From sequence record DRR378314_737: a stretch of 36,062 nucleotides of DNA; one strand, written 5' to 3'. How positions within the stretch are numbered: position 1 is the first letter of the stretch; every line of letters starts with the position of its first letter. The notes under the pieces were generated by a model, which ran no database searches, was not told the origin of the DNA, and saw only the letters and a list, made by a program, of their open reading frames with translations. This document shows positions 11,562 through 36,062 of this stretch, in pieces. The position numbers were made by a program, and so were the translations under genes.

Positions 11562-11587
11562 TGCTGGCGGCGGGCTGAATTGAATCG

Positions 11588-11616: not shown

Positions 11617-11807
11617 TTCATCGCGTCCTGGTTCCAGCTCTGAGCCAAATCGGGAAGGTATTAAATCCGGCGCGCACAAATCGCATCTGATGCGGCAGAA
11701 TTGTTTGCAATATCAGTGACATATTTTAGTCTTTAACCGTTGAGGCGTAACCTTCGCTGCGCGCCAACACTAATTTGCCATCGGGTTCAGGTGGGGAGGG
11801 AGGCATC

Positions 11808-16860: not shown

Positions 16861-16911
16861 CATCTGCTGCGCAACCGCAGCGCAGGTTAAGACAGAGGTT
16901 GGTTGGGGCCG

Positions 16912-17598: not shown

Positions 17599-17633
17599 CA
17601 CTCGGCGTTTCATCAGAAAAGCAAGGTTTTCGG

Positions 17634-17652
17634 CCGCCTCGCGACGGGGCGG
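17634..17652 (+). terminator. hairpin after tetR
   Basis: CCGCCTCG-cga-CGGGGCGG. Confidence 0.4.
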
Positions 17653-17664
17653 GGCAAATTCCTG

Positions 17665-17703
17665 TTGACAACACCAATCCCCCAAAACTATCCAAGCGGA
17701 TGA
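17665..17703 (+). promoter_or_regulatory. sigma70 -35 and overlapping putative TetR operator
   Basis: TTGACA at 17665-17670; aaaactATCCaagcGGATga palindrome at 17684-17703 covering the -10/start region. Confidence 0.6.
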
Positions 17704-17736
17704 AAAATTGCATCAAGCGCGACTTGGGAGGACATC

Positions 17737-20097: not shown

Positions 20098-20131
20098 TTT
20101 GGCCGAAAGCACTAGTTCCCACCCTGATCTT

Positions 20132-20156
20132 CCGAGGCGGGCTCGACCTGCCTCGG
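20132..20156 (+). terminator. intercistronic hairpin after TBDR
   Basis: CCGAGGCGGG-ctcga-CCTGCCTCGG, no U-tract; may be a stabilising stem. Confidence 0.45.
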
Positions 20157-20185
20157 CATCTTGCTGAGAAGGTAAAAGCGACCGA

Positions 20186-22321
20186 ATGAAACTATCTGAA
20201 CAGGATACGAACCATGGCCGGCAAGGCATCGATGTCGAGCAGGTTCTGGGATGTCTGACCCTTGAGGAAAAGGTCGCCATGATGTCTGGGAGCGGCTTTT
20301 ACCGCATCTACAAGGAGGCCAAGAAATGGGGTGCGATGCCCTATCCGGCGGGAGGCTCGAATGAGCGGCTTGGTATTGAGGGCCTCAAGTTCTGTGACGG
20401 CCCGCGAGGTGTTATTGTCGGGCACTCAACCTGTTTTCCCTGCTCAATGGCAAGGGGGGCCACTTTTGACCGTGACTTAGAAGTTCGGATCGGCGAGGTC
20501 ATGGCTGTTGAGGCCAGAGCCCAGGGAGTGAATCTGCTCGGAAATGTATGCATCAATCTCCTTCGCCATCCAGCCTGGGGACGCGCACAAGAGACCTATG
20601 GAGAGGAAAGCTATCATCTTGGCGAAATGGGCGCGGCACTGAGCCGTGGCACCCAGCATCACAATGTCATTGCGACGGTCAAACACTACGCCCTGAACAG
20701 TCTTGAGAATACGCGGTTCGAGCTTGATGTGCGGGTTGATGACCGGCCCCTTTATGAGGTTTACCTGCCACATTTCCGTAAGGTGATCGAGGCAGGCTGC
20801 TTGTCAGTCATGAGCGCCTACAACAAAGTCAACGGTAATTACTGCGGACAGGACAAGCGCCTCCTCACTGATATTTTGCGCAGAGAGTGGGGCTTTGAGG
20901 GGTTTGTTCATTCTGACTGGGTACTTGGCGTCTACTCTCCCCATGGTGCCGCTGCTGGTCTCGATATCGAGAACCCAGAGCCGGCCTGGTTTGGAAAGCG
21001 GCTTCTCGATGCCATAAATAGCGGAGACATCAGTGAAGAAGTGCCCGATGTCGCTGTCCGCCGGATCCTCATGGCGCTGGACCAATTAGACCGGCAGCAA
21101 GATCCGCTTGATGCCTACCCACCCGATCTTGTGGCCTCACCGGCGCACACGGCAATCGCGCTCGAAGCTGCAGAAAAATCTGTAGTGTTGTTGAAGAATG
21201 AGAGTTTGCTTCCGCTCAGCCCGAGCCGCACCGCGAAGCTGGGTGTGTTCGGCCGACTGGCTGATCTGGAGAATACGGGCGACAGGGGCTCTTCGCGCGT
21301 CAGCCCACCTTACATCAGAACGCCGCTTGAGGGACTGCGTGATTATCTTGGTGCTGAACGTGTCACGCTAGGTGGTGACGAAGGTGATTTGGACGCTGCA
21401 ACGCGAGCTGCTGCAGCCTGTGACGCGGCAGTCGTGGTTGTCGGCTACACGGCACTTGAGGAGGGCGAATACATTCCGAGCGACATTAATCTCGGACAAG
21501 AGGAACTGCCTGACACGCTCCGCGCGATTCTGGATGGCGCCAAGCAAGGCGGACAGGGCAAAGCGATTGGCGGTGACCGTGCATCGCTGGATCTGCCGGA
21601 TGACCAGGTTGCTCTGATTCGAGCTGTCGTCTCCGCCAATCCAGCGACAATCGTTGTTATCGTTGCAGGCTCCGCTGTCATGGTGGAAAGCTGGCACGAG
21701 GCAGCTCCTGCCATACTCCAAACTTTCTATGCGGGTATGGAGGGCGGAACTGCGCTTGCCCGGCTCGTGTTTGGTGAGACGAGCCCCTCGGGCCGGCTTC
21801 CGTTCACCGTCGCAAGGAATGCGAATGACTATCCCGCCTTTGACCGGACCGCGAAAGAAATCGAGTATGATTACTGGCACGGCTATCAGAAATTCGAGCG
21901 AGAGCGGCACACGCCCCGCTATGCCTTTGGCCACGGGCTTAGCTATAGCCGCTTTGCCTATTCAGACCTCACGGCCCGGCGTCTTGAGGATGGCGGGCTG
22001 GAGGCTCGGCTGACCGTCGAGAATACAGGTGATTGTGCAGCCATTGACACGCCGCAGCTCTATATTGGCTGGCCGGGGCGCACGGTTGAGCGGCCAGGAA
22101 AAAGTCTGAGGGGTTTTGAGCGGGTTCATCTTGCACCCGGCGAGCGCTCAGAGGTCTGTTTCCGCATCGCTCCACGTGACCTTGCCTGGTTCGATCCGAT
22201 CGCTCACAGCTGGAAGATCGAAGCTGGTCCGCATCGGCTGATCGCGGCAACATCTGCAGCCGACGCGGACGGGCTGGAAGTCACATTGAATATTGCACAA
22301 GAGGAAGACCTTGGTGTCTAG
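20186..22321 (+). CDS. GH3 beta-glucosidase, no signal peptide
   Basis: DGPRG, WGRAQETYGE, KHY, SDW nucleophile, PSGRLPFT, FGHGLSY, C-terminal Fn3-like domain. Confidence 0.95.
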   Translation: MKLSEQDTNHGRQGIDVEQVLGCLTLEEKVAMMSGSGFYRIYKEAKKWGAMPYPAGGSNERLGIEGLKFCDGPRGVIVGHSTCFPCSMARGATFDRDLEVRIGEVMAVEARAQGVNLLGNVCINLLRHPAWGRAQETYGEESYHLGEMGAALSRGTQHHNVIATVKHYALNSLENTRFELDVRVDDRPLYEVYLPHFRKVIEAGCLSVMSAYNKVNGNYCGQDKRLLTDILRREWGFEGFVHSDWVLGVYSPHGAAAGLDIENPEPAWFGKRLLDAINSGDISEEVPDVAVRRILMALDQLDRQQDPLDAYPPDLVASPAHTAIALEAAEKSVVLLKNESLLPLSPSRTAKLGVFGRLADLENTGDRGSSRVSPPYIRTPLEGLRDYLGAERVTLGGDEGDLDAATRAAAACDAAVVVVGYTALEEGEYIPSDINLGQEELPDTLRAILDGAKQGGQGKAIGGDRASLDLPDDQVALIRAVVSANPATIVVIVAGSAVMVESWHEAAPAILQTFYAGMEGGTALARLVFGETSPSGRLPFTVARNANDYPAFDRTAKEIEYDYWHGYQKFERERHTPRYAFGHGLSYSRFAYSDLTARRLEDGGLEARLTVENTGDCAAIDTPQLYIGWPGRTVERPGKSLRGFERVHLAPGERSEVCFRIAPRDLAWFDPIAHSWKIEAGPHRLIAATSAADADGLEVTLNIAQEEDLGV

Positions 22322-24029
22322 AAGCATGCTGGCCTCGATTGGCCTACTCTGTCTTTCCGCCTGCGGCGGCGGATACACCTATGTCCCGCCCGCGCCGCTG
22401 CTTGTGGATGAGGGGACCTTCGTCGAAACAGAGCTTGGACCCGTGATTGGTGGGCGTGAAGAGAACGGTGCCAAGGCCTGGCTCGGCTTGCCCTACGCGG
22501 CACCGCCGATCGGTAAACGACGTTGGCGAGCACCAATGCGCGCAATGGCCTGGACAACGCCTCGCCACACCCTCAATCACCCAGACTGGTGCCCTCAAAT
22601 GACCAACGGGCTGGACGGACTTTTTGGTCTGGAGTCCGGTGAGATACGCGGCGACGAAGACTGTCTTTACCTGGACATCTATGCACCTTCAGGCGCGACG
22701 ATCGAGAGCGAACTGCCTGTCATGGTCTGGGTGCATGGCGGCTCAAATGTTTGGGGCCGCGCCGAGCAATACGATGGATCGCGCTTGGCTGAACAGGAAG
22801 ACGTAATCGTGATCGTCATTCAGTACAGGCTCGGGCCGCTGGGTTGGTTTTCCCATCCTTCGCTCCGCGCGGAAGGTCAGCCTGCCAACTTTGCCTTGCT
22901 GGACATCATTGCGGCTCTTGGCTGGGTAAATGAGAACATCGCAGCCTTTGGTGGCGACCCTGACAAAGTCAGCCTGTTTGGCGAGAGCGCGGGCGCGCAT
23001 AACATTCTGGCTCTTTTGGCCATGCCAGAGGCTGACGGCTTGTACCGCGCTGCGATCGCTCAGAGCGGTCTGCCACTGAGCCTGCCGCGCGAAGCCTCAG
23101 AGGAGGGTGATGGGGCACGAATATTGGGAGCGATCTCTGCTGCTGAGGCATTTACGGGCAGGTCGGATGCGTCACCAGACCAGTTGCGTTCGGTTCCATT
23201 CGGGCAAATTGTAGGGGCCTACGCCGACAGGCAGCCGGCAACTGTTATCCAGGATGGTTTGACCCTGCCGGATCTGCCGCTGGATGAAGCGATTGCCGCG
23301 CATCAGGCAGGCCATGACATCCCGATCATTCTCGGTTCCAACCGGGATGAGGCGAAGTACCTTCTCGCTTTTGATACTAGCTTCACCAAGCTCGCCTTCG
23401 GAATATTTCCTCAATCGAAGGACAAGGACCACTATAATTCTGTAGACAATGCGATGAGCTCGATGTGGCGCCTGGTCGGTGTAGACCGTTTTGCGAGAAC
23501 GCTTGCGGCGTCGAACACCGGGCCGGTTTATACATACCGCTTCGACTGGGACGAGCAGGGGAAAGTTGGTTTGTCTGATATGTCAGATCTGATCGGCGCA
23601 GCCCACAGCCTTGAGATACCATTTGTGTTCGGACGATTTAATTCCTTCATGGGGCGTCTCGACGAGCGTATGTTCAATAAGTCCAATCAACCGGGCCGCA
23701 CAGTATTGTCAGACGCAATGATGTCGTATTGGGGCGCGATTGCGCGCTCAGGTGCTCCCGACAAGGGGGAAGAAATCCAACGGCCTGTCTGGCAGCCAGT
23801 GGATGAGGGCGGCAGCCCCACGCTCATTTTTGATACAGAGGACGGAGGAGGTATCCGTCTTGCGGAAGAGCCACTGGTTCTGGAGTCGCTTTTGCGGCAG
23901 ATAGAAATGGACGAGGCGCTGACGCAAGATTACCGGAGGTGCCGTGTTGCTCAGCAGATCGAGCAGTTCTTTGGACGGGACGAGCCAGTTCTGGCCAGCT
24001 TTGCCCAGCAGGCGTGTATGACAGAGTGA
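22311..24029 (+). CDS. type-B carboxylesterase, predicted lipoprotein
   Basis: Lipobox LSAC; EDCLYLDIYAP, WVHGG, FGESAG, GAAHSLEI; exact start uncertain (22311-22326). Confidence 0.92.
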   Translation: MVSRSMLASIGLLCLSACGGGYTYVPPAPLLVDEGTFVETELGPVIGGREENGAKAWLGLPYAAPPIGKRRWRAPMRAMAWTTPRHTLNHPDWCPQMTNGLDGLFGLESGEIRGDEDCLYLDIYAPSGATIESELPVMVWVHGGSNVWGRAEQYDGSRLAEQEDVIVIVIQYRLGPLGWFSHPSLRAEGQPANFALLDIIAALGWVNENIAAFGGDPDKVSLFGESAGAHNILALLAMPEADGLYRAAIAQSGLPLSLPREASEEGDGARILGAISAAEAFTGRSDASPDQLRSVPFGQIVGAYADRQPATVIQDGLTLPDLPLDEAIAAHQAGHDIPIILGSNRDEAKYLLAFDTSFTKLAFGIFPQSKDKDHYNSVDNAMSSMWRLVGVDRFARTLAASNTGPVYTYRFDWDEQGKVGLSDMSDLIGAAHSLEIPFVFGRFNSFMGRLDERMFNKSNQPGRTVLSDAMMSYWGAIARSGAPDKGEEIQRPVWQPVDEGGSPTLIFDTEDGGGIRLAEEPLVLESLLRQIEMDEALTQDYRRCRVAQQIEQFFGRDEPVLASFAQQACMTE

Positions 24030-24089
24030 CGTCGACATCTGATGATCGCGATTGGCGTGAGTAGGTGGAGATGACGGGTGGCTTCAGCG

Positions 24090-24217
24090 ACCTTTACGCT
24101 CTAGCACCGCGATGATCGCTCGTGAAAAGCATGATCGTATTGTCAGCAAGCTCATTGGTGTCCTTCCGTCCAGGAAGTGCACCTAATTACTTCTCTTCGC
24201 AGGATTATAGACACTCT
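24090..24217 (-). mobile_element. possible decayed IS256-family left-end remnant
   Basis: Reverse strand starts GAGTGTCTATAATCCTGCG (IS256-like terminus by recollection), then GGAAGGACACCA-ATG and a short broken ORF. Confidence 0.3.
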
Positions 24218-24430
24218 GGGCCGCGATTATTGCCTCGTGTTTCGGAGGTCTATCCGGCGAAGGCGTCGAGAAGGGCCAGCGTCGCGACTGGATCACTCAA
24301 AGTGCCGGTCCGAGCGCCATATGCCGAAAGATGACAAGAAGAAAATTGGGTTGGCGAGCGGTGGCCGTATCGGTCCGCTCGATATGGCAGATGCCAAGCA
24401 GGACCGAGGCGAGGAACCTGTTTAAGGCTT

Positions 24431-25792
24431 TCATTTCTGCGTCTTTCCCTCAAGCTCGCGAACGATCGCTGCATGGCGCTCGGCAGACAGTGGATAGAAG
24501 CGGACGATTAGTGTGGCGAGAGCTGCACCGAGCGCCGGCAGCAGAAAGCTGATAGTTCGAAGGCCGTGCAGCGTGTCGTCGGACTGATCCAGATTGGCGG
24601 CGTAGCCAATGGCCGACAAAAGCAGACCGACCGCGCCGATGCCGAGCCCGGAAGATGCTTTCTGGGAGAACTGGAACAAGCCGAACACGATGCCTTCATC
24701 ACGAACTCCGGTCTTCCACTGGCCATACTCGACCGTGTCGGGGAGCATGGACCAGAAGGCAACGATGCACGCTGAGGTGCCGATGCCCGACAGCATGGTG
24801 AGCGCATAGAATGCTAATTTTCCGTCCGGTCCGGTGAGGTAGAGGAGGAGATAGGCAATCGTGTTGATGGCGAGACCGCAAAACAGCGTGAAGGCCTTCG
24901 AGCGCAGGCGTGCCAACTGGGTCCAGGCGAGGATCGCCGCAGCTGCTGCTAGGGTGTAGAGCGTCAGCGCTTCGCGTACAGCGCCCGGTTCGCCGATGAC
25001 ATAGCGCGCATAGTAGACGATCGATTTGGTGAAGACCGTCGAAGCGATCGTGTTGGTGACCACGACTGCAAACAGGATCCAGAAGGCGGTATTGGCTTTC
25101 AGGACGTTCAACGTCGCCCCAAGGTCCGGAGTTTCTGCGTCAATCTCGACGTGTTCCCGAACCGAAGCAAAGGCTATCAGAAGCACGACTTCTGCAACAA
25201 GAGCATAGAGGATTGCCGTCAGCATATAGCCAAGGGCGAGGTCTTCGCCGCCAAGACTCCCCGCCAGCAGCGGGGTGAGGAAGGCAGTGACAATCGCACC
25301 GAGGGTCGCAAACTGCATGCGCGCGCCGGCAAGGGACGCGCGTGTTCGGCCGCTAGTCGTCATCGCAGCAGAAAGGGCTGCAATAGGGACGCCGACAATT
25401 GTGTAGATCGTACGAAACAGAAGGTGCGTCACAAGGCATGCCAGGGCCGCATGAGCGGGCCAGAAGACCGGGGCTGCGAACATCAGTACAAAGCTTGCAC
25501 CGAGCAGGGGGCTGGCAAACAGGATGTAGGGCCGGTAGCGCCCGAAACGCGTGTTCGTACGCGACGCGATCAGGCCCATCAGCGGGTCGGTAACCGCGTC
25601 CCACAGCAGCGAAACCATGAAGATGCCGCCCGCCAGTGCCGGGTTTAGGCCTGCCACATCTGTGTAGTAGAAGAGCAGGTAAAGATTGAGGCCCGTATAG
25701 AAGAGGTTCAGCCCAAAATCACCGGCCCCATAGCCTATGATCGCGCGGCGGCTGATTTGTCCTTCTTGGCTTGCCGAACGCTTCAATCCCAT
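24431..25792 (-). CDS. glycoside-pentoside-hexuronide (GPH/MelB-like) cation symporter
   Basis: GYGAGDFG, YYTDVAGL, WDAVTDPLMG, TRFGRYRPY, MLPDTVEYGQWKTGVRDEG. Confidence 0.93.
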   Translation of the reverse strand: MGLKRSASQEGQISRRAIIGYGAGDFGLNLFYTGLNLYLLFYYTDVAGLNPALAGGIFMVSLLWDAVTDPLMGLIASRTNTRFGRYRPYILFASPLLGASFVLMFAAPVFWPAHAALACLVTHLLFRTIYTIVGVPIAALSAAMTTSGRTRASLAGARMQFATLGAIVTAFLTPLLAGSLGGEDLALGYMLTAILYALVAEVVLLIAFASVREHVEIDAETPDLGATLNVLKANTAFWILFAVVVTNTIASTVFTKSIVYYARYVIGEPGAVREALTLYTLAAAAAILAWTQLARLRSKAFTLFCGLAINTIAYLLLYLTGPDGKLAFYALTMLSGIGTSACIVAFWSMLPDTVEYGQWKTGVRDEGIVFGLFQFSQKASSGLGIGAVGLLLSAIGYAANLDQSDDTLHGLRTISFLLPALGAALATLIVRFYPLSAERHAAIVRELEGKTQK

Positions 25793-25828
25793 TGCCTCCT
25801 ATGCTTTGGCAAGTATTAGCGCACAAAA

Positions 25829-25848
25829 TCATCCGCGTGAATGGTTTT
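25829..25848 (-). promoter_or_regulatory. putative TetR operator upstream of GPH symporter
   Basis: Reverse strand aaaaccattcacgcggatga, 17/20 to 17684-17703. Confidence 0.6.
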
Positions 25849-26151
25849 TTGATAGCAGATGTCATGGCGGGTCATTGTGATAATTGGCGCGCGCAAGATG
25901 GTTTGCGGAGAGGGTGGTCGGTAGCCCAAAGAAAAGTGAGGGGCGCGGTGCTGCAGTGCCCCCGCCAGGTATTGATCAGGACTTGGGCATTCTGAAAATT
26001 TGGGCATGACGCGCAAGCAAGCTCTCCCATGGTTGAGAATGACAAAGTACGAAATCTGTTTGCAGAGCTGACGGCCTGCCAAAAGCAAACTGATAGCGAT
26101 GCACCCACCGTAGTGTCCTTGGCGAGTGGCCTGCATGGATTTTTCGCGAGG

Positions 26152-26195
26152 TCGTTACAGTTGTTTCAAGGCAGCTTCACGAATCCGTCGCGTTT
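26152..26195 (+). promoter_or_regulatory. degenerate tandem Pho-box-like array upstream of ECF sigma
   Basis: 11-bp period: tcGTTAC-agtt, gtTTCAA-ggca, gcTTCAC-gaat, ccGTCGC vs CTGTCAY. Confidence 0.4.
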
Positions 26196-26233
26196 CTACT
26201 TCAATAGCGCAGGCAACGACCTGAAGGCGCAAC

Positions 26234-26839
26234 ATGCAGGCAAAACCATCCTCTCCGGACGACACCGTCCCACCCGGTACTTTTACTGAAATAGTCAACG
26301 CATCTGCGTCGGGTAGCGAGCGAGACGAAGCGGCGGATCGGACGCGTTTCCTGAATAACCTGTTTCGTAACCACTACAGCGAATTGGTTGGCCGCCTCAG
26401 GAAGATCCATGGTGCCGGGCCACCTGAACCAGAAGATGTGGCGCAAGCTGCATTTTCAAAACTCGCTGAGCTCACGGACCTCAGCCGAATCCGGTCACCC
26501 CGAGCCTTCTTGTTCAAGACGGCGATCAATCTGGGATTAAACTCAAACGACAAGCTACGGCGTGGGCGAAACTTCGTCAAAACCCAGATTAATGGAAATT
26601 TTTCTCCCGAGGTGGAAGAAATCTCTCCCGAAACTGTCTTAATGGGAAAGCAGGATCTCGAACGGGTCGCGTACGCTATGCGGCTGCTGTCGCCGAAGCA
26701 GAAAGAAATCCTGTTGCGAAGCCGGTTCAAAGGGCAGACCTATGCGGAGATCAAGAAGGATACCGGCTGGAGCGAGGCGGATATTTCCCGCCAGCTCAGC
26801 AGCGTCATGGCACTGCTGCAAGCCGAACTGGACGGGTAG
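26234..26839 (+). CDS. ECF sigma factor, FecI-like
   Basis: EDVAQAAF, SPRAFLFKTAINL region 2; LSPKQKEILLRSRFKGQTYAEI region 4; followed by fecR. Confidence 0.9.
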   Translation: MQAKPSSPDDTVPPGTFTEIVNASASGSERDEAADRTRFLNNLFRNHYSELVGRLRKIHGAGPPEPEDVAQAAFSKLAELTDLSRIRSPRAFLFKTAINLGLNSNDKLRRGRNFVKTQINGNFSPEVEEISPETVLMGKQDLERVAYAMRLLSPKQKEILLRSRFKGQTYAEIKKDTGWSEADISRQLSSVMALLQAELDG

Positions 26840-26848
26840 CGCTGCGCA

Positions 26849-27847
26849 ATGAAAAAGCCCGTGAAGCCTGACTCTTCCTTAAAATCTGTTTCGGGATCGG
26901 CATTGGACGCTGAAGCCCATGCATGGGTATTGTACTTTGCTTCCGGAGAAAATGCGCCGGAAAAGCAAAAGCTCTTTGCTGATTGGCTCGCCGGAAATCC
27001 GGATCGTCGCGTCGCGTTCGAGCGGGCAGGCCAGTTGTGGGATGCGATGGCCGATGTCGAAGATGTCGAGAACATCCTGACGGATCAGAACAACATTGAG
27101 ACGTTTCAGCCGCGCCGGAGGATGTCGCGACGGTTATTGTTGGGCGGAGGCCTCGCTGCGAGCCTGGTTTGTGCTGTCGGCATTGGCTCGCTCACGCTAC
27201 AGCAAGTTCCTCCGGAAATGATCGAGCTTTCCACACCAATTGGCGAGATTAAGACCTTCACCTTGTCTGATGGTAGCGAGATCACGCTGGGTGGTGCCAG
27301 CCAGGTTCGAGGCGAGTTCTCAGCGAAGACGAGAAACCTCCAGCTCGTCGGAGGCAATGCCTACTTCGATATTACGCGCAGCAAAGACCGTCCTTTGACC
27401 GTCGATACGGGAAGTGTGCGAGTTCAAGTTCTCGGCACCCGGTTCAGTATAAAGAAGAGAACGGAACAGGTGGCTGTTTCTGTCGACAGCGGGCACGTCC
27501 GCGTGATGACTGATATGGCCGCGCGTGATCTGCGGGCTGGCGACCGGATTGTCTCCTCAGCCGCTTTGCGTCTTGGGCCGGTCGAGCCATTCGATGCTGA
27601 GCGGGAACTTTCTTGGCGATCCGGACGGCTCACATTTGTAGATGCGCCGCTTTATGAGATCGTCGCGGATATAAACCAATACAGCGGTCGTCCGGTCAGG
27701 CTCGCGCCCAGCGCGCCTGCGGACATGCGGCTTACCCTGTCTTTCTCTGTTAAACAGATTGATCAGGTCTTGGCCGGTCTGGATGCAGCTTACCCGATAG
27801 AGGTACGCGAAAACGATACGGAAATCGTGATTTCGCAAGGACGCTGA
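26849..27847 (+). CDS. FecR-family anti-sigma/sensor
   Basis: EAHAWV..FADWL N-domain, one TM helix, LSDGSEITL, GNAYFDI, VQVLGTRF, WRSGRLTF. Confidence 0.93.
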   Translation: MKKPVKPDSSLKSVSGSALDAEAHAWVLYFASGENAPEKQKLFADWLAGNPDRRVAFERAGQLWDAMADVEDVENILTDQNNIETFQPRRRMSRRLLLGGGLAASLVCAVGIGSLTLQQVPPEMIELSTPIGEIKTFTLSDGSEITLGGASQVRGEFSAKTRNLQLVGGNAYFDITRSKDRPLTVDTGSVRVQVLGTRFSIKKRTEQVAVSVDSGHVRVMTDMAARDLRAGDRIVSSAALRLGPVEPFDAERELSWRSGRLTFVDAPLYEIVADINQYSGRPVRLAPSAPADMRLTLSFSVKQIDQVLAGLDAAYPIEVRENDTEIVISQGR

Positions 27848-27889
27848 TAGCGCCTCCGGTGAACCTTTTATGAAGTTCGTAAAATCGCT

Positions 27890-27916
27890 GAAAGTCCTGG
27901 CGACCTGATCTGTCTT
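27890..27916 (+). promoter_or_regulatory. FecI-type ECF promoter
   Basis: GAAAGT-N15-TGTCTT vs E. coli FecI consensus GAAAAT-N15-TGTCCT. Confidence 0.6.
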
Positions 27917-27989
27917 CCCCTTGTCCACGCAGGAGCGTGGCGGCGGGTGTGATGCTTCGCCCCGCACAATTCACCATGAGGGGAAAGTC

Positions 27990-30413
27990 ATGAAAACTTC
28001 GATCAGCCTGCGCAAGGCACTCATTCTGACGGCATCGGGCGCCGCCCTTTGCTTCAGCAATGCAGCGATTGCCCAGACAGCAACCGATCAGGACGATACA
28101 AGCATCCAGGATACGGTCGTCATCACCGGTACGCGCGGTGCGCCCCGCACCGCGTTCGATAGCCTCGCGCCGGTAGATGTCATCTCTGAAAAAGCCATTG
28201 ACCTGACAGCATCTGACGAAGTTATGGATACGCTGTCTCAACTTGTGCCGTCTTTCAACGTCAAACGCCTTCCGATGGCTGACGGTCAGGTTTTTGTCCG
28301 TCCGGCCAGCCTGCGCTCACTTTCAGCCGATCACACGTTGGTGCTGATCAACGGCAAGCGTATGCACCGCTCTGCGATGCTTGGCTCCAACGGCGCTCAA
28401 GCGCCAGACCTTGCTCAGATTCCGTCTTACGCCATCAAGCAAATCGAGGTGCTGCGTGACGGTGCTTCGGCTCAGTACGGGTCCGACGCCATTGCGGGTG
28501 TTATCAACATTATCCTCGACGACGAACCCGGTACGAATGCTTTCGCCCAGGCTGGCCAGTATTATGAAGGCGATGGCGAACAATATCGCATCGGCGCCCA
28601 ACAAGGGTTTCAATTCGACAATGGTTTTCTGAACCTTTCTGGTGAATACACAGATGCGCAACCGACATCCCGTTCGCGTCAGCGTGCTGATGCCATCGCC
28701 CTGCAGGAAGCCTTTCCAGACATTAAAGTGCCGAATCCGGTTCAGAACTGGGGTCAGCCAGAACGCCAGGCTTATAGATTCGCGCTGAACGGTGCATACG
28801 AGCTGGCGAACAACGAAGCCTACATATTCAGTACCTACGGCTTCGGTACCGGCGTAACTGACTTCAACTGGAGAAACCCTCTTTCAACCAGCGCGTTCGG
28901 TGATAGCGCGATTGATCCGGACTATGACCTTTCTGAGATTTATCCGGCCGGTTTTACGCCGCGCTTTGGTCAGGACGACAACGACTTTTCATTGACCGGC
29001 GGTTTGCGCAGTGCAGGAGACGGGGCATTTTCGTATGACCTCAGTGCCAGCTATGGCCGGAACCAGATCGAATACTTCATGTACGACTCGATCAACGCTT
29101 CGCTCGGCTCTGCCAGCCCGACCTCCTTCGATATCGGAACGCTGACTCAGACCGAGTTCAACCTGAACGCTGACTTCGTGTACCTTGCCAGCTTGGATTT
29201 CCTGGCCGACGATCTGTCGTTTGCTTTCGGTGCGGAGAATCGCAAGGAAGAATATTCAATTGGTCAGGGTGAGTATGCATCTTTTGCCGTGGGACCGCTC
29301 GCGGCCGAAGGTTTCCCTTCTGGTTCCAACGGTTTCCCCGGCTTCTCGCCAGACCAGTCCGGATCTTCGGATCAGTCCAGCTATGCAGCATATGTGGATC
29401 TGGAAGCCCCGATTACAGACCGGTGGACGGTTGGCGCCGCAGTCCGTTATGAGGATTATTCCGAATTCGGTAGCAGCACGACCGGCAAGCTGTCGACTCG
29501 TTTCGAAGTGACGCCTGGCTTTGCCCTGCGGGCGACTGCGTCCAGCGGATTCCGCGCCCCCACACCAGGGCAGCTCTTCTCGGAGCGAACCTATCAGGGG
29601 CTCGACACCACGACGTTGAATATTTTCACAAGTGGCCGGTTCAGCCCTCAAGGTGCCGTCGCTGAACTGATCAGCCAGCGTGCTGACGTGAACATTCTTC
29701 CGCTCGAACCGGAAGAGTCTGACAACATCACGGCCGGTCTGGCTTGGAATAGCGATTTCGGCATGACCGCGACTGTTGATATTTATCAGATCGACGTCAC
29801 CAACCGTCTGAGCACATCGTCGACCTTTGTTGTCACTGATGAGGAACGTGCGGAGCTTGCCGCTCTAGGCGTTGCGGGCGCGGAAGGGATTACGCGAGTC
29901 AATTTCTTCCAGAATGATTTTGACACGCGCACGAAGGGGCTCGACCTCGTTTTAGCTTATGCCTTCAATGCTGGGCCAGGACAGGTGAATCTGACCGGAG
30001 CTTATAACTATAACAAGACCGAAGTGACCGGTGGCGACTTTGCTGAAAATACAACCTCGGCTGACCGGTTCGAGAAAGGCATTCCGGAGCATACCGCAAA
30101 CCTTCAAGCCAATTACGCATTTGGTAAATGGGATCTCTTTGGCCGGATGCGCTACTATGGGGAATGGCGTGACTATTCGGGCAATTCCACCGGTGACATC
30201 TTCCAGGATTTTGGCGCGATGGTGCTGTTTGATCTCGGCGCGACCTATCAGGTGAACGATAATCTGTCAGTCCGCGTGGGCGCCGAGAACGTTTTCGACC
30301 AATATCCAGACGAAGCGACCTATCAGGCAAGCCGGGGACTAATTTATTCCCGGAACGCCCCCTATGATACCGATGGCGGCCAGTATTACCTCCGCCTCGA
30401 TCTCAGCTTCTGA
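27990..30413 (+). CDS. TonB-dependent receptor without signalling domain
   Basis: ATG 27990 after GAGGGG; signal peptide followed almost directly by DTVVITGTR; IEVLRDGASAQYGSDAIAGVINI; C-terminal F. Confidence 0.95.
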   Translation: MKTSISLRKALILTASGAALCFSNAAIAQTATDQDDTSIQDTVVITGTRGAPRTAFDSLAPVDVISEKAIDLTASDEVMDTLSQLVPSFNVKRLPMADGQVFVRPASLRSLSADHTLVLINGKRMHRSAMLGSNGAQAPDLAQIPSYAIKQIEVLRDGASAQYGSDAIAGVINIILDDEPGTNAFAQAGQYYEGDGEQYRIGAQQGFQFDNGFLNLSGEYTDAQPTSRSRQRADAIALQEAFPDIKVPNPVQNWGQPERQAYRFALNGAYELANNEAYIFSTYGFGTGVTDFNWRNPLSTSAFGDSAIDPDYDLSEIYPAGFTPRFGQDDNDFSLTGGLRSAGDGAFSYDLSASYGRNQIEYFMYDSINASLGSASPTSFDIGTLTQTEFNLNADFVYLASLDFLADDLSFAFGAENRKEEYSIGQGEYASFAVGPLAAEGFPSGSNGFPGFSPDQSGSSDQSSYAAYVDLEAPITDRWTVGAAVRYEDYSEFGSSTTGKLSTRFEVTPGFALRATASSGFRAPTPGQLFSERTYQGLDTTTLNIFTSGRFSPQGAVAELISQRADVNILPLEPEESDNITAGLAWNSDFGMTATVDIYQIDVTNRLSTSSTFVVTDEERAELAALGVAGAEGITRVNFFQNDFDTRTKGLDLVLAYAFNAGPGQVNLTGAYNYNKTEVTGGDFAENTTSADRFEKGIPEHTANLQANYAFGKWDLFGRMRYYGEWRDYSGNSTGDIFQDFGAMVLFDLGATYQVNDNLSVRVGAENVFDQYPDEATYQASRGLIYSRNAPYDTDGGQYYLRLDLSF

Positions 30414-30427
30414 TTCCGGAAAGAGAT

Positions 30428-31726
30428 ATGGACTTTACCAGACGACTGGTCATGAAGGGCGCCGCTGTTGCAGCGGCGTCCTTTACGACAGAAACGGCCT
30501 GTACCGCTGCGCCGGTGCCGGCCTCTGCAGGGGAGCGGACAGTGCAAGATATCGCGAGCGACGAAGCCTTCTGGCGTCCGATTGTGGCGCAATACGACGT
30601 CACGCCGGATGTTGTGAATTTCGAGAACGGATATTGGGGCCTGATGGCAAAACCTGTCTTGGAAGCCTTCGTTCGGAACACTGAAAAAGTGAACCGCCAC
30701 AACTCCTGGTATGCCCGCCGGGACTATTACTCCGACATCCAGCCGATCCATGCGCGCATCGCCGATTTTCTCGGCGCCGGGCAGGATGAGATCGTCTTCA
30801 CCCGCAATGCCACGGAATCGCTGCAGGGCCTTGTCGGCGGTTATAACCGTCTGAAGCCGGGTGATGCGGTGATGTATTCCGACCTGGACTATGATTCCAT
30901 CCAGACGGCGATGGACACCAAGGCCGAAGGGGAAGGGGCGTCGGTCGTCCGCATTGCCATTCCGGAACCAGTGACCTTCGATGGCTTGATCGACACCTAC
31001 CGGCAGGCACTGGAAGCCAATCCGAACGTGCGCCTTCTGTTGCTGACCCATATCAGCCACCGCACCGGCCTGATGGTCCCGGTTCGGGAGATTGTTCAGA
31101 TGGCGCGCGGTTTTAATGTGGACTGTATCGTCGATGCGGCTCATTCTTGGGGCCAGATCGATTTTCGTATGGAAGATCTTGGTGCGGACTTTATCGGTTT
31201 CAACCTTCATAAATGGATCGGTGCGCCGATCGGCGCGGGCTTGATGTACATCCGCCGCGACCGCCTGACGGACATCTCGCCGGACATCTCCGAGCGGCCC
31301 GAAGGTGTCGGCACGATCTACCATCGCATCCATACAGGCACGACGAATTTCGCGACTTTCCTGACGCTGAAAGATGCGCTTGATTTCCATGAGCTTGTCG
31401 GCCCGGCCCGCAAGGCCGCCCGCGTGGCGTATTTGCGCGACCTATGGGCCGAGGAAATGCGAGACGACGACCGGATCGAGATCCTGACACCGCCAGACCG
31501 ACGTCTGCATGCCGCCATTACGTCTTTTCGCTTCAGAGATGTCACAAGTGTCGAGGGCAACAAGGCTATCGTGAAGGCCTTGGTGGACAAGCATCGCATC
31601 TTCACCGTGCATCGTGATGGCGTGGCAAACGGTGCCTGCGTGCGTGTGACGCCGACTCTTTACAATACGCCGGATCAAGCCTTTCAGCTTGTGCGAGCGC
31701 TGCATTCTCTCTTGGCGGAATTCTGA
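30428..31726 (+). CDS. Tat-exported class V PLP enzyme (isopenicillin N epimerase/C-S lyase/PvdN-like fold)
   Basis: TRRLVMK twin-Arg signal; RNATE, VDAAHSWG, FNLHKWIGAP (PLP Lys), HTGT, VRVTP. Confidence 0.88.
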   Translation: MDFTRRLVMKGAAVAAASFTTETACTAAPVPASAGERTVQDIASDEAFWRPIVAQYDVTPDVVNFENGYWGLMAKPVLEAFVRNTEKVNRHNSWYARRDYYSDIQPIHARIADFLGAGQDEIVFTRNATESLQGLVGGYNRLKPGDAVMYSDLDYDSIQTAMDTKAEGEGASVVRIAIPEPVTFDGLIDTYRQALEANPNVRLLLLTHISHRTGLMVPVREIVQMARGFNVDCIVDAAHSWGQIDFRMEDLGADFIGFNLHKWIGAPIGAGLMYIRRDRLTDISPDISERPEGVGTIYHRIHTGTTNFATFLTLKDALDFHELVGPARKAARVAYLRDLWAEEMRDDDRIEILTPPDRRLHAAITSFRFRDVTSVEGNKAIVKALVDKHRIFTVHRDGVANGACVRVTPTLYNTPDQAFQLVRALHSLLAEF

Positions 31727-31795
31727 CATTGCGAACTGTACCCAACTGCAGCATTTGGGTCCCACCGGCACAGGAATGTCTGTTTTAGATGATGA

Positions 31796-31813
31796 TTGTC
31801 ATCTACCTGTCAT
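31796..31813 (+). promoter_or_regulatory. Pho box
   Basis: TTGTCAT-ctac-CTGTCAT, two near-consensus half-sites at 11-bp spacing, 60 bp before the ATG. Confidence 0.7.
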
Positions 31814-31873
31814 CGCCATCGGCTTCTTAGGGGTAACTTCAACGCGGAATGCGAGGACCTCCCTGAGGGACGA

Positions 31874-34561
31874 ATGCGATCGCTCTGCCTGTTCCTGCTG
31901 ACTTGCTCTGCCGCGGTACCATCGGCGGCTGCGCAGACTCATTCCCTGCATCTGCCAGACATGCCACTGGCTGGTGCCATCACATTGCTGGCAGACCAGA
32001 CTGACACTGTCATTATTGCGGAAGCAGCGGATCTGGATGGCCTTAGTTCCAAGTCGCTATCGGGCGACATGTACGTCGAGGAAGCGCTGACAGCATTGTT
32101 GTCCGGCACATCCCTGAGCGTCAGCCAAGATGCAAACGGAGTTTGGATTGTCCGACGCCAACAGCCCGAAAGCTCGACGTCAGAGCGGCCCGCCTATGGT
32201 CTCCGGGCGATCCGTCGTAGCCAGCGGCCTACACAAACCATCGACCTGCCACGCACCTATGATACGGTGATTGTGACTGGCTCTCGGTCTGGATTGGAAG
32301 CTTGGGAAAGTCTGTCGCCGGTTGACGTGTTGACCCAGACAGATTTGGCCGCGCCTGTATCCGATGATCTTGCAGATGTTCTGGCAGGCATCATGCCCAG
32401 CTTTTTTGTGCAACGCCGACCGCTTAGCGATGGTGCCGTATTCGTGCGCCCTTATAGCCTGCGGAATCTGTCAGCCGATCATACACTGATCATGGTCAAC
32501 GGTAAGCGCCGACACCGCTCCGCCATGCTGAATGCTGGCGGATCCCAGTCACCCGACCTGTCGAAGATTCCCACCAATGCCATCCAGCGTGTTGAGATTC
32601 TGCGGGACGGAGCATCGGCGCAATATGGTTCGGACGCGATTGCGGGGGTGATCAACATTATCACTCGCGATGACACGCTGGTTGAAGGCTTCGCGCAATC
32701 TAGCCAGTACTACGAGGGTGATGGAATTCAGCAGCGTATCGGCCTTGGCGGCGGAGCCCGCGAACTAGAAGGCGGCTTCCGGCTCAGCCTCGACTACAGC
32801 GATGCCGCGCCGACTTCTCGTGCCCGCCAGCGTCTCGATGCTGTGCAATATCTTGAAGAACATCCAGATGCAGCTATTGCCAATCCAGTCCAGAAATGGG
32901 GCCAGCCCGAACGGGAGGATTTCCGGGCGTTGCTGGTGGCAGACCAGAATACGAACTTCGGACAGATCTATACCCTCCTCAGTGCGAGCTGGGGGCAAGG
33001 TGTGAGCGACTTCAACTGGCGCAGCCCGGCAACACCAAGCGTCTATGTTTCCAGTTCCACCTTCGGAGACTGGTCGCTGATTGATCTCTATCCGAACGGG
33101 TTCACGCCCCAATTCGGGCAGGAGGAGAATGACCGTGCTGCAATCTTTGGTCTGAAAGGCGCTTTGGCGAGCGGCTTGTCCTACGATATCAGTGCTGCAT
33201 ACGGAGAAAATCAGATCGACTATTTTCTCTATAACACGATCAATTCGTCCATAGGGCCGGATAGTCCGACGCAGTTCGATGCAGGCGGCTTGCGCCAACA
33301 GGAGTTCAATCTGAATGCAGATTTCCAAACCCAGCTCGATACGTCTCTATTCTTCTCCCGACCAATCAATTTGGCCTTTGGCCTTGAAAGCAGACTGGAA
33401 CGCTACACCATCGCTGAAGGCGAGCCTGCCTCATATGAAATTGGCCCGGGCGCCGCAGACGGTTTGACTTCGGGATCAAACGGGTTTCCAGGCTATACCC
33501 TGGACCAGGCCAAAACATATGATCAGTCCAACTGGGCAGCTTATGTCGACGCCGAGACGCGTCCTGATGAAAATGTACAACTGGGTGTCGCTCTGCGTCT
33601 CGAAGAGTTCGATACTTTCGGAAGCACACTGAACGGTAAGCTATCGTATCGTAAAGACTTGCTGGAAGGTTTCGCGCTACGCACCACAGTCTCGACTGGG
33701 TTCAAGGCTCCGACACCGGCGCAACTCTTCTCGGAGCGGACATCGCAGGGGGTCGCTCCAGACACGTTGGACGTTTTCACGAATGGTCGTTTTAGCCCTA
33801 TCGGACCGGTGGCGGAAATTCTAAGCGGGCGGGGAGGTGTGGATATCTCCGCACTGAAGCCCGAAACTTCGGTGAATCTCTCTGCCGGTTTGGTCTTCCG
33901 TCCTATGGACAGGATGATGGCCAGCCTGGATATCTATCAGACAGACGTCCGAGATCGGATTTTTACATCTGAGTTTTATACGTTGGAACCCAATGAGCGT
34001 GCGCGCCTCGCGGCATTGGGTGTGCCGGGTGGGGAAAGCATTACGGAGGTGGGATTCTTTCAGAACAGCTTCGATACGCGAACGTCCGGCGTGGATCTGG
34101 TGATGGATTACGACGCGCAACTGGCAGCAGGTGACTTAACCCTCGGCCTATCATTCAATTACAACAACACCTATGTGCTGAACTCCAGCTTTGTCCAAAA
34201 TCCCTCGCGAGTAGACCGGTTCGAGCGGCTCTATCCACGTTTCTCCACCCATGCCTCAGCAGAGTTCAGACGCGGAACTTGGTCATTCGATGCCAGACTC
34301 AAATGGATCGGTCCCTGGGTGGATTTTACCGATCAAAATGCAGATTTGATTCAGGAGTTCGGTTCGGAAGTTTTCGTCGATGTCAGTGTGTCGGCTGAGC
34401 TCAGTGACAATTTCACTGTGCGCTTCGGCGTGGAGAACTTATTCAATCAGTATCCGGATGAGGCCGTTCTGGAGGTCAGCAAGGGGCTGATTTATTCCCG
34501 CAACGCCCCCTACGATACTGATGGAGGTCAATACTATGTTCGGCTAACGTCACGCTTTTGA
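31874..34561 (+). CDS. TonB-dependent transducer with N-terminal STN-like signalling domain; paralog of 27990-30413
   Basis: ATG 31874 after GAGGGA; LPDMPLAGAITLLADQT...SLSGDMYVEEALTALLSGTSL extension before DTVIVTGSR. Confidence 0.93.
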   Translation: MRSLCLFLLTCSAAVPSAAAQTHSLHLPDMPLAGAITLLADQTDTVIIAEAADLDGLSSKSLSGDMYVEEALTALLSGTSLSVSQDANGVWIVRRQQPESSTSERPAYGLRAIRRSQRPTQTIDLPRTYDTVIVTGSRSGLEAWESLSPVDVLTQTDLAAPVSDDLADVLAGIMPSFFVQRRPLSDGAVFVRPYSLRNLSADHTLIMVNGKRRHRSAMLNAGGSQSPDLSKIPTNAIQRVEILRDGASAQYGSDAIAGVINIITRDDTLVEGFAQSSQYYEGDGIQQRIGLGGGARELEGGFRLSLDYSDAAPTSRARQRLDAVQYLEEHPDAAIANPVQKWGQPEREDFRALLVADQNTNFGQIYTLLSASWGQGVSDFNWRSPATPSVYVSSSTFGDWSLIDLYPNGFTPQFGQEENDRAAIFGLKGALASGLSYDISAAYGENQIDYFLYNTINSSIGPDSPTQFDAGGLRQQEFNLNADFQTQLDTSLFFSRPINLAFGLESRLERYTIAEGEPASYEIGPGAADGLTSGSNGFPGYTLDQAKTYDQSNWAAYVDAETRPDENVQLGVALRLEEFDTFGSTLNGKLSYRKDLLEGFALRTTVSTGFKAPTPAQLFSERTSQGVAPDTLDVFTNGRFSPIGPVAEILSGRGGVDISALKPETSVNLSAGLVFRPMDRMMASLDIYQTDVRDRIFTSEFYTLEPNERARLAALGVPGGESITEVGFFQNSFDTRTSGVDLVMDYDAQLAAGDLTLGLSFNYNNTYVLNSSFVQNPSRVDRFERLYPRFSTHASAEFRRGTWSFDARLKWIGPWVDFTDQNADLIQEFGSEVFVDVSVSAELSDNFTVRFGVENLFNQYPDEAVLEVSKGLIYSRNAPYDTDGGQYYVRLTSRF

Positions 34562-35218
34562 GGTGCTCAATGATAACCGTGAGAGTGCACCTGTGCGAAG
34601 CTGGGGCGCTCGTATCGCCTTACTGTAAGTGTACAGCTGAAATCATGCCAATTTTTGAGACTTCATACTCGAACCAGATCGGGCACATTTGCGCAGGTAG
34701 GGACTGGCGGCACGAAAGCCGTGCAGACTGTATACCGTCATCAGCTTGTTCCACCCAGGCAGGGGGGGACTCATTCGATATGGGGGCTTCAGGGGCACAA
34801 AAGAACGATGTGTCGAGCTGCGAAATACACAAAAAATTCACAAAACAGCTTTTGTGAGGGGGCGTCTTCAAGGCGGCCGCTATCGCGTGCAATCAGAGGG
34901 CGGAGTTTTGGGGTTTTTCCATGCATCAAATTGATCGTGTTCTGCTCTTCTTGCGAAGATCAAATTGCTCAGCTTGGCACCAGCAGAGTATTCTACAAAG
35001 ACTGTGGAATTAAAATCCAAATAAAACAATGGGTTGGGTGGGTGTTCGGCGCTTCTGTGTCTTGAGGGCGCGTGCATTATGTAGAGTGCCTCACTGCAGC
35101 TATCCTGTAAATGGATGCTTTCTTGTAACTCGTGTGACGAGTCCGTGGCAGAGGCTTTGCATACTGTCTGCGGTGCGTTGAGTGATCTGGACATATCGGT
35201 GCGCGCTAACCATCCGGG

Positions 35219-35236
35219 GTGTCATTCGGGTGTTAC
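35219..35236 (+). promoter_or_regulatory. Pho box
   Basis: GTGTCAT-tcgg-GTGTTAC, 11-bp spacing, about 80 bp before the lipoprotein ATG. Confidence 0.55.
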
Positions 35237-35315
35237 ATAAGACGTCTAGAGCCCCTTCAGATCGTCGAATCTACGATCGAATGCATTTTGCAAACCAATT
35301 ATTAGGGGTTGGACA

Positions 35316-36062
35316 ATGAGACTCAAACTAGCCGCGAGTGCCTTGGCGCTTGCTCTCGCAGCCTGTTCGCAGGGCAGCGACATTTCTTCGCCAGGAACGA
35401 CAACCCCAACGACGCCTCCAGGAGGCGGTAGCGATGGCGGCGGTGACGGCGGTTCAGGTTCCGCTGAATGCCCCGCAGCCTTTACTGAAGGCGAAGCTGT
35501 TGCTGGCCTGACCACATGTAATCTGTCCGGCACCTATCTCGCGAATGTTACGCTCGAGAATATTGAGGGGCTGGCCTACCGCATCGACGGTCGGATCGAC
35601 ATCGGCGCTGACACGGGTGCAGACGGCAATCTCGCCGGCGGCCAGGGCGTGACGATGACGATTGATCCTGGCGTCACGCTGTTCGGTGAATCCGGCTCTG
35701 ACTACATCGTCGTTAATCGCGGATCTCAGCTGGTAGCGGATGGTGAACGCGCGGCACCGATCGTCATGACAAGCGCCGACGACCTTGAGCGCCAGGCCGA
35801 TAGCGACGCGTCCAATGATGACGGTGGTGACAACATCTCTGAGTGGGGTGGTCTGGTCATTCTGGGCCAAGCGCCAATCAACCGCTGCCGCGATGCAGCG
35901 ACCCCAGGCACTGTGGATTGTGAAAACCTTGTTGAAGGTGTGACCAATCCTGAAGCCGTTTATGGTGGCGACGACTCCAACGACAATAGCGGCATCCTCC
36001 GTTACTTGCAGGTCCGTTTCGCTGGTTTTGCTATCAACACAGCTGGTAACGAACTGAACGGC
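35316..36062 (+). CDS. surface lipoprotein, beta-helix-type (possibly ElpS-like); runs off window end
   Basis: Not in ORF track. Own translation: MRLKLAASALALALAAC (lipobox), T/P/G linker, TIDPGVTLFG, IVVNRGSQLVADG, EWGGLVILGQAPIN, YGGDDSNDNSGILRYLQVRFAG; open for 249 codons. Confidence 0.88.
   Translation, partial: MRLKLAASALALALAACSQGSDISSPGTTTPTTPPGGGSDGGGDGGSGSAECPAAFTEGEAVAGLTTCNLSGTYLANVTLENIEGLAYRIDGRIDIGADTGADGNLAGGQGVTMTIDPGVTLFGESGSDYIVVNRGSQLVADGERAAPIVMTSADDLERQADSDASNDDGGDNISEWGGLVILGQAPINRCRDAATPGTVDCENLVEGVTNPEAVYGGDDSNDNSGILRYLQVRFAGFAINTAGNELNG

Follow-up and report, generated by a model that had tools for sequence, protein, structure and literature searches.

Within a window of 36,062 nucleotides (the whole stretch of DNA that was analysed, sequence record DRR378314_737), five genes spanning 26152-34561, all on the + strand, were identified using the open reading frame (ORF) list together with Pfam and NCBIfam profile scans. 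In this order they encode an extracytoplasmic function (ECF) sigma factor, a FecR-type anti-sigma factor, a TonB-dependent receptor (TBDR1), a class V pyridoxal phosphate (PLP) enzyme carrying a twin-arginine translocation (Tat) signal and a second TonB-dependent receptor which possesses an STN domain (STN-TBDR). On balance we lean towards this locus being a FecIR-type nutrient-uptake signalling unit that would belong to the PhoB regulon and not to the iron regulon, and the predicted link to phosphate is well supported by the comparison of related loci. As shown by this comparison, the core of the system is a two-gene module, consisting of a TonB-dependent receptor (TBDR) gene and the following gene for the Tat-exported PLP enzyme, and either this module or the enzyme gene alone is found behind putative PhoB-type sites in several lineages. 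In Hyphomonas, an STN-bearing receptor paralog, the ECF sigma factor and FecR appear to have been added to this core, whereby the strong Pho box would have moved to the signalling receptor.

The gene layout reported by the first-pass annotation of this DNA was borne out by both gene order and domain content, and a survey of the neighbourhood, as proposed there, revealed the five genes to recur in identical order in four further loci (L001-L004). PLP-enzyme homologs which share 88-99% identity with the enzyme of the window bear Hyphomonas names, and the window was therefore assigned to a Hyphomonas-type alphaproteobacterium. Of the parts of FecIR-type signalling, the ECF sigma factor, the adjoining FecR protein and the STN transducer are present. 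The sigma factor, which shares 70-76% identity with its orthologs from L001-L004, was recognized by the NCBIfam sigma70-ECF model with 47.7 bits (cut-off 42.9), matches to FecI being weak, and 10 nt separate its stop codon from the FecR start. The mechanical ORF of TBDR1 opens at 27921, the probable start codon being the ATG at 27990, which is preceded by GAGGGGAA; its stop codon is followed by the PLP gene start after 15 nt. The STN domain of the second receptor scored 32.7 bits (cut-off 28.4). Both receptors share 50% identity across 768 residues with 3 gaps only, and they are therefore considered to be paralogs which probably bind the same or a similar ligand.

The phosphate link originates from the region upstream of the STN receptor, where the first-pass annotation had described a near-consensus Pho box. 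Applying the consensus CTGTCAT-N4-CTGTCAT, this box was found to be present with one mismatch, 60 nt upstream of the probable ATG of the STN-TBDR (66 nt for its second half-site), the mechanical ORF of this receptor opening at 31796. A loose search of the window (up to 3 mismatches) identified 1 match as compared to 2.84 expected matches, and the count alone is therefore not beyond chance; for a box with no more than 1 mismatch, simple arithmetic on the basis of a uniform composition gives an expectation of about 0.01 per window. Alignment of the orthologous loci revealed the 18 bases of the Pho box half-sites to be invariant in 5/5 loci, the upstream flank being largely unalignable, and hence the site from which phosphate control had been proposed is kept in all of the orthologs. 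The link is backed further by (i) Pho boxes located about 85 nt upstream of stand-alone Bradyrhizobium-type PLP orthologs and (ii) a half-site located at a fixed distance before most of the TBDR-PLP pairs that do not possess a sigma factor, both of which are detailed below.

Genome-wide scans were carried out with G001 (3.4 Mb, which holds L003) and G002 (3.7 Mb, which holds L002). Perfect YTGTCAY-N4-YTGTCAY sites amount to 3 in G001 and 1 in G002, the STN-receptor site being among them in each case, while sites with at most 1 mismatch number 12 and 11, respectively, versus 7 and 4 in the backwards control. Further intergenic sites of this latter kind are associated with the end of pstA before phoU, with a PHO4-family phosphate transporter and with a TOBE-domain ABC ATPase, and others with a different type of TBDR that is paired with a PMT_2 glycosyltransferase (both genomes) and with a GT2 glycosyltransferase. 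PhoB scored above the curated cut-off in 5/5 genomes tested and adjoins phoU in G001. Searching five genomes for pstS with TIGR00975 gave no match, and TIGR02136 identified sub-threshold pstS-like genes, the upstream regions of which score below 9 by the Pho matrix described below; calibration of the Pho motif on pst genes of Hyphomonas-type genomes may be regarded as supportive, not clean. In L086 and L103, which derive from two Hyphomonas-type genomes, a Pho box was observed between a CarboxypepD_reg-type TBDR and a PMT_2 glycosyltransferase, a pair which may represent another phosphate-starvation unit. The strongest array of a Hyphomonas pacifica genome (L088, positions 1479-1518) consists of four phased Pho half-sites; no ORF of at least 60 amino acids lies downstream on its strand, and its flanks comprise a small ORF in divergent orientation as well as a methyltransferase gene with its 3' end.

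The comparison was extended by scanning genome contigs for the PLP enzyme, whereby at least 601 stretches were matched, at least 585 of which encode a relative, and the best 80 loci were kept. Within these 80 loci (1,253,858 bases, both strands), 21 matches to the Pho consensus were found when up to 2 mismatches were allowed for, and 19 of these are located just upstream of the PLP gene or of its STN receptor, on the strand of the PLP gene. Precisely, 15 of the placed matches belong to 14 stand-alone loci, mostly from Bradyrhizobium, and the others to the STN receptors of L001-L004; the remaining 2/21 matches lie elsewhere. A Pho matrix was trained on 14 of these sites and evaluated against a background of 4142 windows, whereby 20 stand-alone loci reached the 99th percentile of the background, 8 of these 20 being outside of the training set. 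The stand-alone Pho box begins 72-189 nt (mostly 83-89 nt) before the PLP start codon. The pstS promoter that follows phoR in a complete genome of Bradyrhizobium (G006) was identified to carry GTGTCAT-ccag-CTGTCAC, which ties the motif to PhoB in the Bradyrhizobium lineage. Comparing 81 flanking ORFs of the stand-alone orthologs with Pfam revealed no recurrent partner; an unnamed ORF of about 470 amino acids, conserved near the Bradyrhizobium PLP genes, is matched by neither Pfam nor NCBIfam and could be an artefact of gene calling, and a 'phosphatase-family' neighbour in L038 turned out to be an ordinary exodeoxyribonuclease III.

The association of the enzyme with a receptor is widespread, as a TBDR1-like gene was found directly upstream of the PLP gene in 30/80 loci, with gaps of about 15-110 nt. 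Hosts of this module are Hyphomonadaceae, Sphingobium, Sphingopyxis, Sphingomonas, Hyphococcus, Marinicauda and Oceanicaulis, and furthermore Henriciella, Ponticaulis, Eilatimonas, an Aestuariibacter and several bins. Of these 30 loci, 10 additionally encode the sigma/FecR pair, for which at least three gene orders were found: Hyphomonas has sigma-FecR-TBDR-PLP-STN receptor, Henriciella has STN receptor-TBDR-PLP-sigma-FecR and one Sphingobium has TBDR-PLP-sigma-FecR-STN receptor. Among the 20 pairs without sigma factor, 14 possess a YGTCAY half-site at -90..-45 from the receptor start, versus 42/898 (4.7%) of the control upstream regions, which were the other ones of the same loci; in four more of the sigma-less pairs the half-site is located at -99..-124. 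Usually it is trailed 9-12 nt further on by CTAG, CTAA or TTAAT, the version found in the window being CTGTCATC, followed after 11 nt by CTTAGG. The PLP-adjoining receptor is without this half-site in Hyphomonas, Henriciella and L042. Our reading of this distribution is that a receptor-enzyme operon under a PhoB-type site may be ancestral, and that a ligand-sensing layer may have been inserted in some lineages.

Table 1. Coordinates of the genes and candidate control elements of the five-gene locus within the window.
Feature	Position	Strand	Basis
Array of three 7-bp direct repeats in 11-bp phase (GTTACAG / TTTCAAG / CTTCACG)	about 26155..26183	+	sequence
ECF sigma factor, 201 amino acids	26234..26839	+	Pfam Sigma70_r2 + Sigma70_r4_2
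FecR-type anti-sigma factor, 332 amino acids	26849..27847	+	Pfam DUF4880, FecR, FecR_C
Conserved upstream region of TBDR1-PLP	27860..27918	+	invariant blocks, 5/5 loci
TBDR1 leader, two hairpins and a possible helix sequestering the ribosome-binding site	27909..27989	+	RNAalifold
TBDR1, presumed importer, 807 amino acids	27990..30413	+	Plug + barrel, no STN
Tat-signal class V PLP enzyme, PvdN/SufS-like, 432 amino acids	30428..31726	+	Aminotran_5
Pho box TTGTCAT-ctac-CTGTCAT, two 7-bp direct repeats with 4-bp spacer	31796..31813	+	1 mismatch
STN-TBDR, TonB-dependent transducer, 895 amino acids	31874..34561	+	STN + Plug + barrel

Next to the Pho box, the upstream regions of the sigma factor gene and of TBDR1 were compared. 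Upstream of the sigma gene, a degenerate Pho-like array had been suggested, and an array of repeats does indeed exist and is conserved: GTTACAG and TTTCAA are invariant in all five loci, and the third repeat, CTTCAC in the window, reads CGTCAC or GGTCAY (a good half-site) in the four orthologs. Its score by the Pho matrix remains below 11, so that 'Pho-like' describes a resemblance only, and the array may be a weak site of the PhoB type or could equally well contain a -35 element of the sigma-70 type (GTTACA). In two Henriciella loci, a conserved TGACAG-N5-TTACAG was observed upstream of the STN receptor (L021, 2455-2500; L024, 2395-2445), which looks like a Pho repeat when read from the opposite strand and has GTTACAG in common with the upstream region of the Hyphomonas sigma gene.

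The upstream region of TBDR1-PLP is of a different kind. Block 1 consists of the invariant TGAACCTTTTATGAAG at 27860-27875, which contains the direct repeat TGAAC-N6-TGAAG, and block 2 consists of CTGAAAG-N16-TGTCTTCC at 27888-27918, whereby the invariant CTGAAAG is followed by variable 10 nt and then by a nearly invariant stretch which extends to the TBDR1 start codon. Block 2 resembles iron-starvation ECF promoters, and a comparable CAAGA-N15-CGTCTTCC was found in two Henriciella loci; a loose search for CTGAAAG-type ECF motifs gave 80 hits and was non-specific. Within 130-200 nt upstream of TBDR1, no YGTCAY was found in the Hyphomonas-type loci. The leader of TBDR1 is nearly invariant across the five Hyphomonas-type loci, and RNAalifold analysis of 7 leaders from two genera paired UUCCCC with the ribosome-binding GGGGAA in 7/7 sequences, 3 pairs of the predicted fold showing double changes. 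The leader may represent a translational control element; the UUCCCC/GGGGAA helix, if real, implies that the block is transcribed and that the TBDR1 promoter is therefore located further upstream. No Rfam family and no known riboswitch was assigned to the leader, the sole match of an Rfam scan of 25000-36062 (E up to 1) being a sub-threshold Glutamine-II inside of the STN receptor gene. A scan of the + strand of the locus for the sigma-70 consensus identified no site, and terminator-like sites occurred at chance level.

Iron control of the locus was considered likewise. In the window, a Fur-like 19-mer with 5-6 mismatches (31788-31806) overlaps the first Pho half-site, and 0/200 shuffles reached an equal match. 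Its left half is missing in 4/4 orthologs, the Pho part alone being conserved. Before the sigma gene, no Fur-, Irr- or Zur-like site was prominent, none was found to be conserved across the orthologs before this gene or TBDR1, and an Irr-like match before TBDR1 was reached by 7/200 shuffles and is not conserved either. The check for Fur and Irr boxes which the first-pass annotation had advised hence revealed no conserved one in the control regions.

The PLP enzyme was characterized on the basis of profiles, alignments and a predicted structure. Its N-terminus contains the twin-arginine motif T-R-R-L-V-M-K, and a simple pattern identified such a motif in 75/80 loci, at least 3 of which look like false positives, while 3 of the 5 misses carry ERR or QRR, which are outside of the pattern. 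As the motif is near-universal in the 80 loci, export is considered a family trait, including three actinobacterial members. PvdN was the best match in the profile, sequence and fold comparisons, and the next Foldseek matches were SufS and CsdA. The NCBIfam PvdN equivalog NF051467 gave a full-length match of 112.4 bits, which does not reach the cut-off of 650, and a profile search of the PDB identified the PvdN structure 5i90 (E 1e-34). The predicted model (mean predicted local distance difference test score, pLDDT, 81.3) likewise had 5i90 as its top Foldseek match, with template modelling (TM) scores of 0.78/0.86 and a root-mean-square deviation of 2.8 A. An identity to PvdN of about 23%, the score below cut-off and the family-invariant residues that PvdN does not match exclude that the enzyme is PvdN itself: R97, R98, R212, H302, H395 and R396, among others, are invariant in 16 diverse members and are unmatched in the PvdN alignment.

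The PLP lysine (K262, within H-K-W) is invariant in 16/16 sequences, and R406 near the C-terminus, the arginine which in this fold binds the substrate carboxylate, is kept. In the alignment with the Brucella SufS structure 4w91, V-H395-R396 lies opposite T-H-C, so that an invariant arginine (R396) takes the place of the catalytic cysteine, which excludes a cysteine desulfurase; the SufS model scored 111.9 bits versus a cut-off of 475. The kinship to SerC and PhnW, which had initially been considered for this enzyme, was not upheld, as the enzyme was placed in the NifS/SufS/PvdN branch and the matches to PhnW are short and weak: PhnW was rejected with 37.2 bits versus 360.8 across residues 191-282 only, and both the PhnW and SepCysS models matched a short central stretch with 28-37 bits. 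An ESM Atlas lookup returned generic names only. Taken together, we infer an exported enzyme of the lyase or PvdN type, the substrate of which would resemble an amino acid and bear an anionic side group; phosphorus in this side group is a guess, suggested by the regulatory sites alone. The enzyme family is widespread and without a characterised member, and its receptor partner points to a defined substrate.

Based on these findings, a two-tier gate may be formulated, which is plausible and a reasonable model for Hyphomonas, not a general one. It builds on the strong Pho box of the STN receptor and on the different conserved upstream region, devoid of a Pho half-site, of TBDR1-PLP. Initially, low phosphate would cause PhoB to make the sensor receptor and perhaps also the sigma factor and FecR. 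Next, binding of the ligand to the sensor would be signalled via FecR, whereby the sigma factor would be released, and the freed sigma factor would then induce the importer and the PLP enzyme. Finally, the PLP enzyme would act in the periplasm on the imported compound. Our guess is a reaction of the lyase type, the compound being similar to an amino acid and bearing an anionic side group that probably contains phosphorus. A more far-reaching reading, which we put forward tentatively and consider rather unlikely to hold in full, is that the Tat-exported PvdN/SufS-like enzymes with arginine in place of cysteine constitute a new periplasmic phosphorus-scavenging class of the Pho regulon, two-tier gated in Hyphomonas. 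According to this joint reading, the enzymes would free phosphate, or a phosphate monoester to be used by ordinary phosphatases, from amino-acid-type organophosphorus compounds, with candidate reactions being (i) beta-elimination from serine-phosphate esters or diesters and (ii) C-P cleavage of phosphonoalanine via a PLP ketimine.

Several findings weigh against phosphate control and a phosphorus substrate. All regulatory claims made here rest on motif matches, and about half of the genome-wide sites with at most 1 mismatch may be due to chance, as indicated by the backwards control. The pstS-like genes of Hyphomonas-type genomes possess a single good half-site only, TTTTGTCAY, and the three perfect sites in the Bradyrhizobium genome G006 (L109-L111) precede no textbook Pho gene, as they are located before an unnamed ORF of 361 amino acids, a zinc alcohol dehydrogenase and an Orn/Lys/Arg decarboxylase. 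No Pho-type site was seen in about 35/80 loci, among them L005, L006 and L010, which are close relatives from Hyphomonas and in which no receptor adjoins the PLP gene. The sigma-bearing loci L021 and L024 (Henriciella), L042 and L043 do not possess the half-site before the first receptor, and the sigma-dependent promoter of TBDR1-PLP was not located in the blocks examined. Finally, the substrate of PvdN, the nearest characterised relative, is a siderophore, and the sequence itself gives no indication of a phosphorus substrate.

Alternatively, the locus could serve for the uptake of a phosphorus-free amino acid, D-amino acid or peptide as nitrogen or carbon source, with the PLP enzyme being an epimerase or lyase and the motif reflecting another OmpR-family regulator or an incidental contribution of PhoB. 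This would agree with the loci that lack a Pho-type site, with the label isopenicillin-N epimerase which some sources assign to homologs, with the abundance of TBDR-based peptide and glycoside uptake loci in the window and with the gene context in Kordiimonadaceae and Emcibacteraceae, where the tandem paralogs of the enzyme described below lie beside a symporter gene and an M14 carboxypeptidase-like gene. As the repeats are near-perfect matches to the PhoB consensus, as the motif also occurs at pst/phoU, PHO4 and pstS in related genomes and as two distant lineages possess Pho sites independently of each other, and this in two different gene contexts, this explanation is considered improbable.

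A usual FecIR-type iron or xenosiderophore system was weighed likewise, in which the receptors would take up a ferric chelate that the PvdN-like enzyme tailors or dismantles and in which the Pho box would reflect cross-regulation, iron demand under phosphate stress being exemplified by the PhoX-type phosphatases, which need iron. The FecIR-type architecture is what such a system would show, PvdN, to which the enzyme is closest among its characterised relatives, tailors pyoverdine, the receptors match siderophore-receptor models weakly and the window possesses the Fur-like 19-mer over its Pho box. The absence of the left half of this 19-mer from 4/4 orthologs, the absence of Fur, Irr or Zur sites conserved elsewhere, the PvdN model score of 112 versus its cut-off of 650 and the Pho boxes of the stand-alone orthologs all argue against it. 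Neither pyoverdine nor other siderophore synthesis genes were found among the ORFs of the window, and we judge an iron system to be quite improbable. An envelope-remodelling enzyme of phosphate starvation, acting on an endogenous amine of the periplasm or outer membrane (for instance, the head group of an amino lipid or glycan) while the receptors serve for signalling or unrelated import, would explain why about 20 loci encode the enzyme behind Pho boxes with no receptor at all and why other Pho-box neighbours in Hyphomonas-type genomes are the PMT_2 and GT2 glycosyltransferases, but it is considered very improbable in view of both the tight, recurrent adjacency to one receptor family in 30/80 loci and the added ligand-sensing paralog, which argues for an imported substrate.

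Beyond the locus itself, further observations were made. In the Kordiimonadaceae/Emcibacteraceae loci L047, L064, L066, L068 and L077, 2-4 tandem paralogs of the PLP enzyme adjoin a sodium:solute symporter, an M14 carboxypeptidase-like protein of 855 amino acids and BioY, a context which hints at amino-acid or peptide chemistry. Within the window, a second uptake locus (561-12608) comprises on the - strand a major facilitator superfamily (MFS) transporter, two M24 peptidases, one of which has a creatinase/prolidase N-domain, and an M20 peptidase; these genes diverge from a TBDR gene encoding 1010 amino acids, which is followed by an IclR regulator. A third one (16903-25792) comprises a TetR regulator, a TBDR, a GH3 glycosidase and a carboxylesterase on the + strand as well as a GPH-family symporter on the - strand. 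RNA-library contigs from two studies (X4, X6) cover the five-gene locus in a scattered manner at a depth of 3-5, which cannot show transcription, strand or level, and one of these contigs crosses the TBDR1/PLP junction, whereby DNA carry-over is possible; X13 contributed no contig.

In large parts of the ocean, as in numerous soils, growth is limited by phosphorus. To our knowledge, the known periplasmic tools for the use of organic phosphorus are hydrolases, i.e., phosphatases, diesterases and phytases. The enzyme family described here is found behind PhoB-type sites in two distant alphaproteobacterial lineages, and if our reading holds true, a Tat-exported PLP family with at least 585 relatives would add an unsuspected chemistry to phosphorus scavenging. 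Likewise, the Hyphomonas version would be only the second kind of PhoB-controlled surface signalling after PUMA3, and the first such system in which a full receptor would act as the sensor and a nutrient importer would be the output. That no system with this layout had been described, as stated by the first-pass annotation, agrees with the open full-text literature, in which neither this layout nor a Pho-regulated exported class V enzyme was found to be described. The main text of a Caulobacter PhoB-regulon paper does not mention an aminotransferase.

Among the systems that share parts of this layout, SppR-SppABCD from P. aeruginosa, said to have been described by Pletzer et al. in 2016, reportedly combines a TBDR with a nearby sigma/anti-sigma pair and a PLP enzyme, xenosiderophore uptake having been proposed as its function. 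It reportedly also includes an ABC importer, which the present locus does not possess. The FecI-FecR-FecA system follows a three-part logic of ECF sigma factor, FecR anti-sigma factor and STN-bearing receptor, and is normally controlled by Fur. This logic is common to the present locus, including the DUF4880/FecR/FecR_C domains and the STN receptor, but equivalog scores are below cut-off (FecI 26.9/260, FecR 100.9/385 and FecA 36.4/1100), a conserved Fur box is absent, sensor and importer are separate paralogs and a PLP enzyme is included. The PLP enzyme falls into the same fold branch as SufS and CsdA and keeps the PLP lysine as well as the arginine close to the C-terminus that binds the substrate, but it does not possess the catalytic cysteine and is exported, not cytoplasmic. 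PvdN is likewise a Tat-exported PLP enzyme, which forms succinamide from the glutamate side chain of pyoverdine in the periplasm, as reviewed in PMC6206403. The present enzyme resembles PvdN (PDB 5i90) in being a Tat-exported class V PLP enzyme and aligns to it in full length, including the signal region; it differs in that no pyoverdine genes are nearby and in that its family is linked to Pho sites.

The closest precedent in terms of regulation is PUMA3 (VreA-VreI-VreR) from P. aeruginosa, in which vreAIR was reported to require PhoB and phosphate limitation (Quesada et al. 2016, PMC4971064). Pho boxes were reported to reside also at the sigma-dependent promoters of this system, where PhoB is required, and a further signal was found to be needed for full sigma activity, the regulon consisting of virulence functions (PMC4971064). 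Both systems have in common an ECF sigma/FecR-type signalling unit with pho boxes, here known from motifs. They differ in that no Pho half-site precedes the presumed sigma-dependent unit TBDR1-PLP, and in that the sensor described here is a full STN receptor with plug and barrel, whereas VreA is described as a receptor-like protein. Furthermore, this sensor has a non-signalling paralog as importer, and the output differs, as it consists here of an importer and a periplasmic enzyme and not of virulence functions.

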